From assembly GCA_963789955.1 (NCBI GenBank), contig CAWBMV010000017.1, positions 32,001 through 96,000 of the forward strand: a DNA stretch of 64,000 bases, in the 5' to 3' direction. Positions within the stretch are counted from its first letter, which is position 1. Every line of letters starts with the position of its first letter. A program made the position numbers. The stretch comes from an uncultured Candidatus Rokubacteria bacterium (GTDB taxonomy: Bacteria > Methylomirabilota > Methylomirabilia > Rokubacteriales > CSP1-6). Positions 33,001-39,000 of this stretch are shown here, one piece after another.

Positions 33001-36000
33001 GACCGAAGACGCGCGCGAGTTCCTGGATCGCGAGGGAATCGACGCCGACACGATCGCGCCGTCCGTGGACGGCAAGTTCATGAGCGCGTTCATCCGGGCG
33101 CGCAAGCCGTCGGTGGTGTGAGCGACCGAAGCAGTCTCGGTCGGCGCCTCGCCGCGGAGGCCGTCGGTACCGCGCTCCTGCTGGCCGCCGTTGTCGGATC
33201 CGGCATCATGGGCGAGCGCCTCGCCGGCGGCAACGTCGCCGTGGCGCTCCTCGCGAACACCGTGGCGACCGGCGCGGCGCTCGTCGCGCTCATCCTGACC
33301 TTTGGATCGATCTCGGGCGCGCACTTCAACCCGGCCGTCACCTTGGCCGACGCGTCGCGAGGTGGGCTCGCCTGGGGCGACGTGGTGCCGTACGTCGTCG
33401 CGCAGATCACCGGCGCGTTCGCTGGTGTCGCGGCGGCCCATGTGATGTTCGAGGCGCCGCTGTTCTTCGCCTCGCGTCACGCGCGCTCCGGGCCGGCGCA
33501 GATGTTCAGCGAGTTCGTGGCCACCTTCGGGCTCCTCGCCGTGATCTGGGGCTGTCTGCGCGTGCGCGCCGATGCCATCCCGTTCGCGGTGGCCGCCTAT
33601 ATCACGGCGGCGTACTGGTTCACGGCGTCCACGTCGTTCGCGAACCCGGCAGTAACGCTCGCGCGGTCGGCCACGGACACGTTCGCGGGCATCCGCCCGG
33701 CGGACGCGCCGGCCTTCATCGTCGCCCAGCTGCTCGGGGCCGGCGCCGCGACCGCGCTCTTCGCCTGGCTGACTCCTCGAGCGACCTGATGGCCCTGTCG
33801 GTCCGTCTCGCCGGCGCCGCGGACGCCCCGGCCATCGCGCGCATCCACAACGAGGGTATCGAGGATCGGATCGCCACGTTCGAGACCGAGCCGCGGACCG
33901 CCGATCAGGTGGCGAAAGCCATGGCGGAGAAGGGCGATCGCTATCCGACGATCGTGGTCGTGCGCGACGGCGAGGTCGTGGCCTGGGCGAGCGCGGGCCC
34001 CTACCGCAGCCGGCCCGCCTATGCCGGTGTCGCCGAGCATTCGGTCTATGTCGCGCGAAACGCTCGCGGCGCCGGGGTCGGCCGCGCGGCGCTCGATGGA
34101 CTCTGCCGGGCCTACGCGGAGCGCGGCTTCTGGAAGATCGTCTCCCGGATCTTTCCCGAGAACGTGGCGAGCCTGGCGTTACACGAGCGCTGCGGCTTCC
34201 GTGAGGTCGGCGTCTACAAACGGCACGGCCAACTCGACGGCGAGTGGCGCGATTGCGTCATCGTCGAGCGCCTGCTCGGCTGAACCCGTGAACGGCGTGG
34301 AGGACGGCATGAGCAAGCAGCGGGTCCTGTTCCTGTGCACCCACAATTCGGCGCGTAGCCAGATGGCGGAGGGCCTCCTCCGGGCGATGGCCGGCGAGCG
34401 CTTCGAGGTGCAGAGCGCGGGCACCGAGCAGACCCGCGTGCATCCGCTGGCGATCCGCGCGATGGCGGAGCGCGGCATCGACATCAGCGGCCACACGTCG
34501 AAGGTGTACGTCGGCCTGCTGGCGGAGCCGTGGGACTACGTGATCACCGTCTGTGACGACGCGAACGAGCGCTGCCCGTTCCTGCCGGGCGCGGTGAAGC
34601 GCCTGCACTGGTCGCTCGAGGACCCGTCGCGCGCGTCCGGCGACGAGGAGGCGCGGCTCGCGGCCTTCCGGCGTATTCGCGGCGAGATCGAAGCCCGTCT
34701 CTCCGAGTGGCTGGCGAGCCGTTAGGCGCGCGGGGTCACGAGGCGCTTTCGAACGCAGCTCGGGGGGAGCGGCGACGCTCCCCCCGAGGGTGAACCGGAG
34801 CGAGGGTGAACCGGAGCTAGTCGATCTCGTCGGGCCGGCCGCCCTTGCGCGCGCCCGCGGGCTTCTTGCCGGCGTCGGCGCCGTGCCCGTTGCCGTTGCC
34901 GAAGGTGAGCGGCGGCTTGACCTCGAACTGCTTTTCGAGGCGGTTGCGCCGCTCCTTCCAGCCCTCCTGATACTCGAGCTCCTCCTCGTGCAGGGTCGCC
35001 GGCTGCTTGATCCCGTGCGCGTGGCGGAACTGGATCGCCAGCTTGGACGCCTCGCGGCGCACTTCGTCCCACGGCGTGCCGAGCGCGAACTGATCGGAGA
35101 TGGCGCCGATGCGGCCCGTGTGGATGTTGCAGGAGAGCGTGATCGCCGACAGGATCGGCCCCGACCAGTAGGAGGTCTGCGAGTTGATCGGCATCGGCAG
35201 GATGTGCAGGTTGTGGCTGCCGCGGCAGTCACCGGCCACCATCGGCGCGGTGGCCCAGGGTGACGTGATCTCACCCGGCGCCGGCCAGTCGCCCTGGGCG
35301 AAGGCCAGGAGCACCGGATCGTCCTTGCCGCCGTAGGTGAAGCCCTTCTTGGTCTTGATGTTGTGCAGCCGCTCGGCCGAGCAGATGTAGCCGAGCTGGT
35401 CCTTCTCGTTCTTGTCGCCTCGCGTCCAGATGCGCGCGATCACGAAGCGCGAGGAGCGGGTCAGCCCCTCGATGTCGTAGAGGTCTTCGGGGGCCCGCAG
35501 GGTGATCACCTTTTCCTGGAGTCCCTTGGCGACCTCTTCCATCTTGTTGTCGAGCGCCCGCTGGTCACGCGGGTGGGCGCCCGCCTCGACCGCCTGCGCC
35601 TTCGTGTCGAGGTCGACGATCTCGAAGACGTAGCCGCGCTTCATCTTGGAGGCGGCGATGACGAGACCGGTGTTGAACCGCGGCAGCATGTAGGCGCCGG
35701 TGGCGTAGTGGTTGAACGCCATGGGCTCGGTCTTGTCGGCGAACGACACCAGCACGGTCTGCGAGGCGTTGTCCTTGCGGACCGGGAACGGCAGCGCCAC
35801 CGTCGCCGGGCCGGCGCCGCGCAGGTTGCCGGTGAACGCGTCGGCCACCAGGTCCTGGCCGGGGCCGTAGAGGCCGAGCTCGGCGGCCTTGGTGGCGCCT
35901 TCCTGCAGCGCGTCCCACATGAGCTCGTCGACGACCGACATGTCCACCGTCTCGGCCATGATCCCGGTCACGGCGCAGTCGTCGCCGGTGTGGGTCACGA

Positions 36001-39000
36001 TCATCGAGGTGAAGATGGGCTCGCCGCGGTAGCTGTTGTTGTCGAGGACGTACTTCGCGATGATCGACTTCACCTCGTCGGCCGCCACCACGTGGCCGCC
36101 GACCCCGCCGACGTCGGCCTTGGTGGCCTTGATGTAGCGCTGAACGAGAGCCGGGTTCTTCGCGAAGATGTACGACTTGTACGAGAAGATGTTCGGCGTG
36201 TTCGTGACCGGGATCTTCTCCGTGACGGTCACTGGCAGCCCGGCGAGCTCGTCCTTCGACTGATGGTATTCCGTCATCTTGATGGGCTGACCATCCTGTG
36301 GGCCATAACGCCGCGCAGACATGCACGCCTCCTTGCGTCGGGTGAGGAATTGGATACTCGCATTCGAGGATATCGGGGTACACTGAGGGCGTCAAGCAAG
36401 AAATTTACGGAAATGAAATTAATTTCTCACGGCCTGATCACGACGTGAAAACCGCTCCCCTCACCTCGCGCGAGCTCCGGCAGACGGTGCACTGTCTCGA
36501 GCTGTACTACCGCCAGAGCAAGAGCCAGAAGGACATCGCCAGCTCGCTGGGCGTCTCGGCGGCGACCGTGTCGCGCCTGCTCAAGCGCGCGTTCGACGAG
36601 GGACTCGTCCGCGTCGAGCTCGATCTGCCGCGCCGCGAGCAGCTCGAGGCCGGGCTGGTCGAGCGCTTCGGCCTGCGCGACGCCGTCGTCGTCGCCGCCG
36701 GCGGCCGCGGCGACGTGAAGGAAGAGCTCGGCACCGCCGCGGCGGCGTATTTCGAGAAGATCGCCGCCAACGGCCTGCGCGTCGGGCTCTCGTGCGGGTT
36801 CACGCTCTACCAGACGATCCGCCAGCTCCACGAGCGCCGCTTTCGGGATCTGGCCCTCTACCCGCTGTCCGGCGAGAGCACGCTCGAGCTCGTGGACTTG
36901 TTCCCGAATACGCTCGTCGGGATGATGGCCGCGAAGTATCGCCCGCACGTTCACGCGTGGGCGCTGCCGGTGCAGCACCTCCTGTCGCTGCGCGAGATCG
37001 AGCGCGAGCGGCGGCGGCTCCTGCGCGACCCGGCGATCCGGCGGATCTACGAGGCGGCCCAGGACGTCGACATCGCGCTGGTCGGCATCGGGCTCATCGG
37101 CGAGAGCACGCCGGGGTTCTGCTCGCTGGCCGAGTCGTACGGGGTCAGCGTCAAGCGATTGCGCCAGCTCGGCGTCGTCGGCGAGATCAACTACCAGCCG
37201 TTCGACGAGGAAGGACGCATCGTGGATCGGCCGGAGCTGCGGGCGCTGATGCGGCGGGTACTCTCGGTGCCCGGCGACCGGTTGCAGGCCCTGTCGCGCC
37301 GCGACGATCGTTACGTCGTGGCGATCGCCGGCGGCCGGCCCAAGCTCGAGGCGGTACGCGGCGCCGTCGCGGGGCGCTTCATGAACGTGCTGGTCACCGA
37401 CGAGGACGTCGCCGCGGCGCTCCTGCGGTGATCGGGCTGACGACCCGCTACGCGCCGCCCCGGGCCGGGATCGAGCCCTCCTCGAACGCGCCGATCCGCC
37501 TGAACTTCTCGTAGCGCCCGGCGACCAGATCGTCGCCGGATTGTCCGGCGAGGTCGCGCAAGTTCTCGCGAAGCGCCGTCTTCAGGTACCCCGCCGCGCC
37601 CTCCCAGTCGCGATGCGCGCCGCCGACCGGCTCGGGCACGATCGCGTCGATCACCCCGAGCTTCAGGAGGTCGGGCGCGGTGATGCGCATCGACTCGGCC
37701 GCTTCGGGAGCCTTCGCCGCGTCGCCCCACAGGATCGCCGCGCACCCTTCGGGCGAGATCACCGAGTAGATCGAGTATTCCAGCATGAGCACCCGGTTGC
37801 CCATGCCGATCGCCAGCGCGCCGCCGCTGCCGCCCTCGCCGGTCACGATCGAGAGGATCGGTGTGCGCAGGGCGGCCATCTCACGCAGGTTGCGCGCGAT
37901 CGCCTCCGCCTGCCCGCGCTCCTCGGCGCCGAGCCCCGGGTAGGCGCCGGGCGTGTCGATGAACGTGACGACGGGCTTGCCGAACTTCTGGGCGAGATGC
38001 ATGAGCCGCAGCGCCTTCCGATAGCCCTCGGGGTGCGGCATGCCGAAGTTCCGCGCGATCTTCTCGCGGGTATCCCGCCCCTTCTGGTGGCCGATGACCA
38101 CGAGGCTCCGCTCTTCGAACCGGGCCAGGCCGCCCACGATCGCGGCGTCGTCGCCGAAGAGCCGATCGCCGTGCAGCTCGACGAAGTCCTCGAAGAGGAG
38201 CTTGATCAGGTCCCGCGTGTGCGGGCGCTTCGGGTGGCGCGCGAGCTGCGTGCGCTGCCAGGCGGTCAGGCTCGCGTAGGTCCGCTGGCGCAGCCGCGCC
38301 AGCCGCTCCTCGAGCTTCGCGATCTCTTCGCGCGCCTTCGGCGCGTCGTCCTCGGCCTGGAGCGTGGCGATCCGGTTCTCGAGGTCGACCAGCGGCTGCT
38401 CGAAATCAAGCGCGTCCGGCATAGTCCACGCTCACCGAGCCCGGCCCGAGCACCGTCTCGCCCTCGGCGACGAGCTCACGGCTGCCGTCGACGGAAAGAC
38501 CGCGGGTACGCACGACGATCTCCTGGCCGCCGATCACGAGGTGCAGGAAGACCGGCACGCGCCCGGGATGCTCGCCGCAGAGCTGCCGCACGGCCGCGAG
38601 CGCGACGCTCGGATCCTCGCCTGGCGTGAAGCGGATCCGGCAGGCGTTCGGCTCGGGCGCGCCGCCGCCGTTCCGCGGGCGATTCGCCGAGTCGGCCAGC
38701 GCCTGCTCGAGCAGCCGCACGTCCTCGGCGAGCACGACACGCCCCTTGTCGCCGTCGTCCACGCGGCCGCGGACCAGCACGGCCTCGCTCGAGCGGAGAC
38801 AGGCCGCCGCCGACTTGAACGGCTCCGGGAACACCGTGACCTCGACGGTGCCGTCCATGTCCTCGAGCGTGAAAAACGCCATCCGATTGCCGCCCTTCGT
38901 GGATGTTTCCTTGAGCCCGGTCGCGTGGCCGAAGAGCAGGACGCGCGAGCCGTGGCCCTTGGCGGCCAGATCGGCGGAGGTCGTGACGCCCAGCGGCTCG

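Follow-up and report, generated by a model that had tools for sequence, protein, structure and literature searches.

Most proteins of the SorC family are repressors (PMC11229326). Members have a C-terminal sugar-binding domain of about 250 residues (PF04198) with a phosphosugar pocket; a tetramer occupies an operator whose two half-sites lie about two turns apart, and the effector releases it. The SorC/DeoR subfamily is defined by an N-terminal HTH of 50-60 residues followed by a beta-linker (PMC11229326). The operator of Bacillus subtilis DeoR spans positions -60 to -21, with a strong palindrome upstream of the -35 element and one repeat downstream of it; the second half-site is barely recognisable, yet still lies within the repressing footprint (PMC11229326). 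B. subtilis CggR represses glycolytic genes; its winged HTH comprises about 100 residues, and its tandem operator, of the GGGAC type, occupies +32 to +77 in the leader of its own transcript. FBP and DHAP both release CggR (PMC11229326). SorC of Klebsiella and Escherichia coli, a member of the SorC/DeoR subfamily, controls sorbose catabolism and offers a precedent for activation besides repression: according to a passage of PMC12817954 that cites Wohrl (1990), it is an activator with its inducer and a repressor without it.

Gluconeogenic genes are under sugar-sensing control by unrelated proteins. High FBP turns them down via E. coli Cra (PMC8738977). In Thermococcales, TrmBL1/Tgr are reported to activate fbp, and TrmBL1 activates from sites upstream of the promoter, although TrmBL1 was not detected at the fbp promoter by ChIP-seq (PMC4706686). 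The transcriptional control found described for the archaeal class V enzyme is exerted by TrmB-family proteins, and in the literature searched, neither a bacterial regulator of a class V gene nor a SorC-family protein with a gluconeogenic target was found.

The window analysed here is a stretch of 64,000 nucleotides from an uncultured Candidatus Rokubacteria bacterium of the order Rokubacteriales. It contains a gene for a SorC-family regulator transcribed away from a gene for a long-form class V fructose-1,6-bisphosphate aldolase/phosphatase (Table 1). Across the order, the two genes are arranged head-to-head in 104 of the 105 genomes holding both, the remaining genome having them on two contigs; the close pairing described in a first-pass annotation of this DNA is therefore borne out, and the gap that it gave as about 120 bp measures 122 bp. 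Among 183 genomes of the order, orthologues of the regulator were counted in 114, of the enzyme in 108, of both in 105 and of neither in 66. These counts include three unpublished genomes (G008, G148 and G149), which were left out of all sequence analyses and without which the numbers are 111 for the regulator, 105 for the enzyme and 102 for both. The pair is present in all five families of the order, and the regulator did not turn up in a sample of 38 genomes from the phylum's other orders. The regulator and enzyme constitute a two-gene cassette: they sit between miaB and accA, and accA adjoins miaB in five of five genomes, from five genera, that have neither gene. Adjacency alone is little proof of a functional link, because the whole miaB-accA-dnaE block is syntenic throughout the order, and the genomes compared are kin rather than independent samples.

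Table 1. Genes and predicted control elements of the cassette (positions in the window)
Feature	Position	Strand	Remark
Long-form class V fructose-1,6-bisphosphate aldolase/phosphatase, 501 aa	34817..36322	-	PF01950, 260.6 bits
Enzyme ribosome-binding site AAGGAGG	36328..36334	-	read from sequence
Predicted enzyme -10 hexamer TATCCT	36367..36372	-	TA-N3-T in 99/100 loci
Predicted regulator -10 hexamer TACACT	36379..36384	+	inside spacer of enzyme promoter
Predicted enzyme -35 hexamer TTGACG	36390..36395	-	TTGAC in 99/101 loci
Putative weak half-operator touching enzyme -35	36395..36408	.	second-best offset (-19) of strong-site matrix
11-codon frame from ATG within strong site	36413..36448	+	stop overlaps regulator GTG
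Putative strong half-operator, palindrome TG(A/C)AA-N4-TT(T/G)C(A/T)	36414..36427	.	conserved spacing to -35
SorC/DeoR-subfamily transcription regulator, 328 aa	36445..37431	+	PF04198, 146.5 bits, and N-terminal HTH

The enzyme resembles the archaeal class V structures from S. tokodaii (3r1m/1umg) and T. neutrophilus (3t2b-g) in fold. Matches to 3r1m, 1umg and 3t2b were obtained with E values of 7e-42 to 8e-34, a structure model (pLDDT 80) superimposes with a TM score of 0.85 over the target 3r1m, and all seven Foldseek matches of the model at E<=0.001 are class V structures. The S. tokodaii residues D12, H19, D53, D54, Q95, D132, K133, Y229, K232, D233, D234, R266 and Y348, which comprise metal ligands, the Schiff-base Lys and the catalytic Tyr, correspond to D70, H77, D114, D115, Q156, D196, K197, Y330, K333, D334, D335, R367 and Y451, and the metal, Schiff-base and phosphate residues checked are conserved in 92-95 of 95 orthologues. 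The exception is S. tokodaii Asp287, presumably a substrate-contacting residue, which aligns to Ser387 and is Ser in 92 of 95 orthologues; its equivalent is also missing from several shorter, canonical-length homologues. The assignment of the target to class V in the first-pass annotation thus holds, with this one substitution. Unlike the archaeal proteins, with which it shares about 28% identity in the structural alignment, the enzyme is 120-140 residues longer, owing to an N-terminal extension of about 60 residues, an insertion of about 30 residues near 240-270 and a disordered C-terminal tail, and it scores below the NF041126 equivalog cut-off (253.2 bits versus 520). A CCTCC-like run precedes the enzyme start in nearly all of the gaps printed. 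The long-form branch also occurs in records labelled Chloroflexi and Daviesbacteria, with no SorC neighbour found within the 3-4 kb examined; in two Chloroflexi-labelled loci, the long form and a canonical class V gene form a tandem, and a canonical class V paralogue is present in some Rokubacteriales, including the source genome. The source genome (87% complete) yielded neither glpX nor a class I FBPase, and in it a class I aldolase gene adjoins a pfk gene with GGDD and PKTIDND motifs, which are typical of a PPi-type phosphofructokinase.

The regulator contains the SorC-family sugar-binding domain (PF04198, residues 66-328, 146.5 bits versus a cut-off of 27) behind the short HTH that is characteristic of the SorC/DeoR subfamily. 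It matches DeoR 8r7y (E 9e-26) and SorC 2w48 (E 5e-24) over its full length, and its residues 10-58 correspond to the DNA-binding domain of DeoR (7bhy). The match to CggR is restricted to the effector domain (E 6e-6), full-length CggR 8r3g aligning only from its residue 102. The designation "CggR-type" in the first-pass annotation is therefore not supported, since the effector domain begins at residue 66 and there is no winged HTH of about 100 residues; what CggR shares with this system is the family, a target in central carbon metabolism and a tandem operator in its own leader. DeoR (PDB 8r7y, 4oqp) is the best PDB match and likewise combines a short HTH with a sugar-binding domain, and its base-reading Arg39 corresponds to the invariant Arg44. 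R44, G118, T120, E247 and K300 are conserved in 99-102 of 102 orthologues, and the pocket motifs of DeoR have their aligned counterparts in G118-x-T120, E247 and K300 (99-101 of 102). However, the regulator falls below the cut-off of NF053881, the family of DeoR orthologues (142.3 bits versus 420), and DeoR Arg34 is replaced by Ala or Ser in nearly all orthologues. In addition, Ser142 takes the place of the lysine of the DeoR LKGG motif, presumably the covalent one.

The gap carries two predicted, overlapping, divergent promoters. A sigma70-like promoter scan of 4.5 kb gave TTGACG-17-TATCCT on the enzyme strand as the sole match (one found versus 0.2 expected). Counts for the -10 hexamers and the spacer refer to 100 loci, G069 being left out: the enzyme promoter spacer is 17 bp in 40 loci and 18 bp in 60, and the regulator -10 hexamer is TACACT in 48, TAGAAT in 20, TAGACT in 17 and TACAAT in 8. 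Transcription is predicted to start near 36360 for the enzyme and near 36391 for the regulator. Soil and sediment RNA data (15 rows) cover part of the stretch. In three runs, the ends of the listed RNA contigs over the enzyme fall at 36296, 36240 and 36335, and a fourth run covers all 30 bins and may contain DNA; the four runs were compared as contigs, which give no start, strand or level, and therefore nothing was drawn from them.

Upstream of the enzyme promoter lie two sites predicted to form a DeoR-like tandem operator. The conserved inverted repeat reported by the first-pass annotation next to the -35 hexamer is real, but it is not one long repeat; it consists of a 14-bp palindrome, TGAAA-N4-TTTCA, and a degenerate copy 19 bp away. 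The strong palindrome shares the TGAA-N6-TTCA core of the left DeoR palindrome, and the pairing of one strong with one weak half-operator is also as in DeoR. In a matrix built from the strong site only, the offset of -19 ranked second of 66 (mean 5.8 bits; next, -5.4). The strong site is centred at about -60.5 from the predicted enzyme start and would fall at about +24 to +37 of the regulator transcript; the weak site is centred at about -41.5. Both sites thus occupy about -35 to -68 of the enzyme promoter, upstream of its core, with the weak site overlapping the first 1-2 bases of the -35 hexamer. Compared with DeoR, the half-site period is 19 bp versus about 22, the -35 hexamer is left free, regulator and target are transcribed divergently and the target belongs to anabolism. 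In all but two of 101 loci, drawn from five families, 22 bp separate the strong site from the TCAA of the enzyme -35, and position 36396 in the weak site is G in 100 of 101. In family f2, the weak site is degraded (mean -4.6 bits in 16 loci versus 7.9 in 83), and the distal site and its spacing are retained. An ATG in the strong site shares the reading frame of the regulator in 61 of 99 loci and may be the regulator start there. Both arms of the strong site change in a paired manner (C..G) in 9 of 99 loci.

The operator is the best site in the genome, as had been claimed, also when the source genus is left out of matrix training: the full operator then scores 54.4 bits versus 15.4 for the next place in the genome, and five block-shuffled genomes gave no score above 20.1. 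No second strong site was found in the source genome, the next 14-bp match (21.4 bits) lying within the shuffled maxima of 19.1-22.7. A second tandem match in three genomes of genus g8 was rejected because it lies within a TPR gene, and 14 other palindrome matches were rejected because their loci are not homologous. No operator was found near 11 pfk, 5 aldolase, 2 class I FBPase and 5 malate synthase loci, nor near 8 canonical class V loci, where the best score was 15.6 bits. Rfam gave no match at 30000-40000, and an Atlas search gave SorC-type clusters only.

What does the regulator do at these two promoters? The operator lies upstream of the enzyme -35 and downstream of the regulator start, and the clear case of repression is therefore that of the regulator's own gene, which very probably represses itself. 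For the enzyme, the upstream-type position leads us to favour activation over repression, tentatively and at a little less than an even chance. According to this proposal, the unidirectional gluconeogenic enzyme and its dedicated SorC/DeoR-type regulator would act as one unit. The regulator, probably a tetramer, would bind the two half-operators, repress its own gene through their location in its 5' leader and leave the enzyme core from -35 to +1 free. The bound protein would stimulate the enzyme promoter by contacting RNA polymerase from about -41.5 or -60.5, by closing the overlapping rival promoter, or both. A phosphorylated sugar signalling glycolytic supply would loosen the regulator and turn the enzyme down, so that the enzyme would not run in a futile cycle against the phosphofructokinase (PPi type) and the class I aldolase of the genome. 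The genes, residues, motif, geometry and distribution behind this scheme are observed, whereas binding, oligomeric state, effector, sign of control and enzyme activity are what we infer.

The spacing that is fixed to the enzyme -35 is loose to the regulator -10 (of 100 loci, 86 have 29-30 bp and 11 have 49 bp), which counts for activation, as does the uncovered -35, which sets the operator apart from that of DeoR, a repressor. A single site near -60 makes a poor steric obstacle and sits where class I activators typically bind; its retention in f2 despite proximal decay points the same way, although this is not decisive because in DeoR, too, the strong palindrome is upstream of the -35, and the second half-site of DeoR is barely recognisable and nevertheless lies within its repressing footprint. 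The proposal also draws on SorC as a precedent for activation, on the release of CggR by FBP and DHAP, on the Cra and TrmBL1/Tgr examples, on the class I aldolase gene beside a PPi-type pfk, and on the behaviour of the pair as a cassette, including the class II aldolase of the g8 genomes without the enzyme. On the other side, the enzyme -35 is near consensus in almost every locus, and such hexamers are commoner at repressed than at activator-dependent promoters. The overlap of the weak site with this hexamer also speaks against activation, and SorC, which activates with inducer bound, follows the opposite logic; the repressor habit of the family and the missing ChIP-seq signal of TrmBL1 at fbp likewise count against it. 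The main competitor, doubtful but a real possibility, is that an effector-free tetramer on both half-sites represses the enzyme, occupancy of the weak site keeping sigma region 4 or the alpha-CTD off the -35. The substrate of the enzyme, a triose phosphate, would then free the weak site and induce the enzyme while the strong site stays bound and autorepression persists; in a SorC-like dual version, activation would be added once the effector is bound. The habits of the family, the quality of the -35 and the contact of the weak site with it all suit such repression, and DeoR represses from -60 to -21. CggR splits to dimers, one of which remains bound at its stronger half-operator, and its effectors include DHAP (PMC11229326). 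However, compared with that of DeoR, the operator is shifted upstream by about 10-13 bp and does not cover the hexamer, the proximal site has decayed in f2, and release by a sugar phosphate would presumably induce a gluconeogenic enzyme at high glycolytic intermediates. Thus, of the dedicated repressor proposed by the first-pass annotation, the SorC regulator, conserved operator and class V target stand, whereas the operator position fits repression of the regulator's own gene, repression of the enzyme being slightly less likely than its activation.

Two further readings carry less weight. It is very unlikely that the operator serves autoregulation only, with the AT-rich tract being an enzyme UP element or the N-terminal codons of the regulator (MKLIS) and the real target elsewhere. 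In eight loci that have lost the enzyme, the -35 is gone in seven and the regulator -10 is kept in most; what fits this idea is that the operator is kept in five of them and the HTH and pocket motifs in all eight. The strong site as possible first codons in 61 of 99 loci fits as well. Against it, the motif persists in the other 38 of 99 loci, which are barred from an in-frame start, with arms changing in pairs, the spacing is fixed to the enzyme -35 rather than the regulator -10, and neither the genome nor the pfk, fba, canonical class V and malate synthase loci offered another strong site. Nor is it at all likely, if marginally less remote, that the long form is not the standard bifunctional FBP enzyme (a phosphatase only, or one acting on another ketose bisphosphate) and that the regulator controls a side pathway. 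The low equivalog score, Ser387 and the coexistence with canonical class V genes would suit this, but the other catalytic residues are kept, canonical-length homologues also lack the Asp, and neither glpX nor a class I FBPase turned up in the source genome, which is 87% complete. Moreover, loss of the enzyme gene coincides with a class II aldolase, which is present in seven of seven g8 genomes keeping the regulator without the enzyme and in only 5 of the 105 genomes holding both genes.

If the sign of control is positive, an effector-released activator would join a family known almost only for repressors. In contrast to the global regulons of Cra and TrmBL1/Tgr, there is one local site per genome here, and the effector would reveal the metabolite read to switch carbon flow. 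If the regulator is a repressor, it would represent a new local regulon of ordinary kind. In both cases, the locus is a complete, small, testable unit of one protein, two promoters and an operator from an abundant uncultured soil lineage. In two genera, a candidate site was also found beside an isocitrate-lyase-family gene at a LysR/isocitrate-lyase-family locus. That Rokubacteriales have made the SorC/DeoR repressor scaffold an activator of gluconeogenesis which sugar phosphates release, adding a third protein family to those of Cra and TrmBL1 as their counterpart in bacteria, and that its regulon reaches this locus in the two genera, is unlikely as a combined proposal, but if so, the wider regulon would account for the regulator staying intact after loss of the enzyme.

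The regulator and enzyme ORFs are divergent and separated by a gap of 122 bp. Among 183 genomes of the order Rokubacteriales, a regulator orthologue was found in 114, the enzyme in 108, both in 105 and neither in 66; these distribution counts include three unpublished genomes (G008, G148 and G149) used in no other analysis. Of the 105, 104 show the head-to-head arrangement reported in the first-pass annotation. Close homologues are labelled Rokubacteria or Methylomirabilota, and a sample of 38 genomes from the phylum's other orders yielded no regulator. In five of five genomes lacking both genes, from five genera, accA and miaB are 55–105 bp apart; since these two genes adjoin where the pair is absent, the pair is a cassette in that junction. 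The surrounding block of a glycosyltransferase-like gene, a bifunctional-nuclease-domain gene, miaB, accA, dnaE and guaA is conserved. In most relatives miaB directly follows the enzyme, unlike in the window's genome, where an arsenic-resistance cluster (ArsR, methyltransferase, MIP channel, GNAT and LMW-phosphatase-type reductase) lies between them. Here dnaE is split over several frames, as are other genes of the same assembly, which suggests indel errors in the assembly.

Features of the locus and of related loci (window positions unless a record is named)
Feature	Position	Strand	Remark
Enzyme ORF	34817-36322	-	501 aa
Regulator ORF	36445-37431	+	328 aa
Strong half-operator	36414-36427		14-bp palindrome TG(A/C)AA-N4-TT(T/G)C(A/T)
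Weak half-operator	36395-36408		degenerate copy of strong palindrome
Short frame opened in operator	36413-36448
Arsenic-resistance cluster	31934-34725
dnaE in several frames, and conserved block	38476-41915 and 28787-30452
Candidate second operator	L190:1500-1545; L208-L224, L248-L250, L256		LysR/isocitrate-lyase-family gap, genera g5 and g8
Canonical-length class V gene	G000:C10:26484-27621		window's genome, outside window
Tandem class V genes	L164:3455-6065; L165		Chloroflexi-labelled
Long-form class V gene and neighbours	L170:3941-9327		Daviesbacteria-labelled

The association of regulator, enzyme and operator is real. All parts come from known families; what is new is the target, where the operator lies, and the branch of the enzyme. 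In the largely openly available literature, searched at the level of titles and abstracts, neither the pair itself, nor control of a gluconeogenic gene by a SorC-family protein, nor any bacterial regulator acting on a class V gene was found described.

In the regulator, PF04198 covers residues 66-328, and the HTH in front of it is short. DeoR and SorC align with it over the full length, CggR over the effector domain only. By the definition in PMC11229326 it is thus a member of the SorC/DeoR subfamily and not of the CggR type, as it had earlier been labelled. Its scores fall below both the DeoR and LsrR equivalog cut-offs. Among 102 orthologues the effector-pocket motifs are conserved, and Arg44, which aligns with the base-reading Arg39 of DeoR, is invariant. 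Asp or Glu occupies residue 30 in 100 of the 102; the two with Ala are the sister genomes G062 and G065 (L026 and L028), which lack the enzyme, and the change, counted as one event, may reflect a relaxed contact.

Alignment of 101 gaps (100 relatives and the window) revealed two overlapping divergent promoters. The enzyme promoter has a TTGAC -35 in 99 of 101 gaps and, after a spacer of 17 or 18 bp, a TA-N3-T -10; the -10 of the regulator promoter, of the TACACT/TAGAAT type, lies inside or beside the enzyme promoter. The conserved operator previously proposed was recovered across the aligned gaps as a palindrome with a weak copy, the latter located by a matrix trained on the strong site alone, for which offset -19 ranked second best (G069, with no TCAA anchor, and G096, shifted by 1-2 bases and with a frameshifted regulator, were left out). 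Its core is that of the left palindrome of Bacillus subtilis DeoR, TGAA-N6-TTCA. The operator also held its place as the best site of the genome, even with genus g1, that of the window, excluded from training: it scored 54.4 bits, the next place 15.4, and the best score in five block-shuffled genomes was at most 20.1 bits. The strong site possibly encodes the regulator's first codons in 61 of 99 loci, a confound, and its motif is also conserved in the 38 where it does not; paired changes in both arms occur in nine loci. In 13 of 14 g1 loci, a start codon in the operator opens a frame of 7-11 codons ending at or before the regulator's later start; this codon shares the regulator's frame in most of the remaining family f1 genera.

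What does the bound regulator do? Relative to predicted starts, the operator covers about +5 to +37 of the regulator's own promoter, the position of an autorepressor, similar to CggR, whose operator is downstream of its own start (+32 to +77). That the operator serves autoregulation only is nevertheless improbable: 99 of 101 loci place it at one fixed distance from the enzyme -35, while its distance to the regulator -10 varies (29-30 bp in 86 of 100, 49 bp in 11), indicating that the enzyme promoter holds the geometry. Neither is it merely an UP element of that promoter, because it is retained without the enzyme; in eight enzyme-less loci, a natural control, the -35 is missing in seven and the operator kept in five, so that TTGAC belongs to the enzyme.

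At the enzyme promoter the operator reaches from about -35 to -68, and its two sites are centred near -41.5 and -60.5, or one base further upstream where the spacer is 18 bp. Such centres are classic activator positions. In addition, the -35 hexamer is left free, unlike in DeoR, whose operator spans -60 to -21, and in family f2 the proximal weak site has decayed while the distal strong site is kept. SorC is able to activate (PMC12817954), and release of an activator by a sugar phosphate is the logic of Cra (PMC8738977); the proposed logic also resembles that of TrmBL1, an activator that works from upstream sites (PMC4706686). Activation of the enzyme promoter by the bound regulator is the favored but tentative reading, a little short of evenly probable. 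Repression of the enzyme, or SorC-like dual control, is somewhat less probable; in its favor are what is usual in the family, a -35 that is near-perfect, a weak site that overlaps the edge of the hexamer, the likewise upstream strong site of DeoR, and DHAP being an effector of CggR (PMC11229326). The earlier claim of a dedicated repressor of the enzyme is on this reading slightly less probable than activation; repression of the regulator's own gene is likely. In the window's genome a class I aldolase gene adjoins a PPi-type pfk, and with both present an unchecked phosphatase could drive a futile cycle.

The regulator is kept with the enzyme absent at the locus in eight genomes, requiring at least three, and about five to seven, changes on the regulator tree. 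Class II aldolase is present in all seven enzyme-less g8 genomes versus 5 of 105 genomes with both genes (no P value is given, as related genomes are not independent), and a canonical class V gene is present in the eighth; this fits replacement of an FBP aldolase function. The HTH and pocket stay intact, even in three genomes missing both enzyme and local operator, and pairwise regulator dN/dS is about 0.02-0.25 across g8. A second target would explain this. An order-wide palindrome scan returned one recurrent extra place among the matches listed. It lies in the gap that separates a LysR gene from one of the isocitrate-lyase family (PF00463; prpB is the best NCBIfam match, below cut-off). The palindrome was found in 22 of 22 g5 and g8 genomes having this LysR (20 picked up by the pattern itself, two fetched blind). 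None of 10 genomes lacking the regulator has it, and among 27 further regulator-bearing genomes only one does, which groups with g8; G030 has a similar palindrome at a different offset in that gap, and the LysR gap of the window's genome has none. In 17 loci tallied, nine of ten arm positions are invariant or nearly so, the 4-bp centre varies slightly, and GAAA is repeated 19 bp away. Against a regulator site, it overlaps LysR's own boxes, and a regulator match is missing from three of the 22 genomes, which are 69-84% complete; the palindrome may trace to one or two gains. As judged from these patterns, this gap is a possible second target, though less likely than not.

The enzyme matches PF01950 (260.6 bits), and its PDB matches are class V FBP aldolase/phosphatases only. 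Its predicted structure (20-row alignment, pLDDT 80) has a TM of 0.85 to 3r1m over the target, and all seven structure-search matches at E<=0.001 are class V. Of 95 full-length orthologues, 92-95 retain the equivalents of the Sulfolobus tokodaii functional residues D12, H19, D53, D54, Q95, D132, K133, Y229, K232, D233, D234, R266 and Y348. Counting against a plain class V assignment are the NF041126 score (253 bits, cut-off 520), the 120-140 residues beyond the archaeal length, and Ser387 in place of archaeal Asp287. The bifunctional class V enzyme converts triose phosphates to F6P (PMC12965863). The window's genome has a second class V gene, of canonical length, whose frameshift may be a long-read error; near such paralogues in eight other genomes no operator was seen. 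Five records outside the order contain long-form relatives at 45-56% identity; their labels are Thermoflexus, Chloroflexi, Daviesbacteria and, twice, Gammaproteobacteria, and none has a SorC-type gene in the surrounding 3-4 kb. In two Chloroflexi-labelled records long-form and canonical genes are in tandem, which hints at different roles. In the Daviesbacteria-labelled record, the long-form gene is followed by glycosyltransferase-, HAD phosphatase- and glycoside hydrolase-like genes, as judged by eye.
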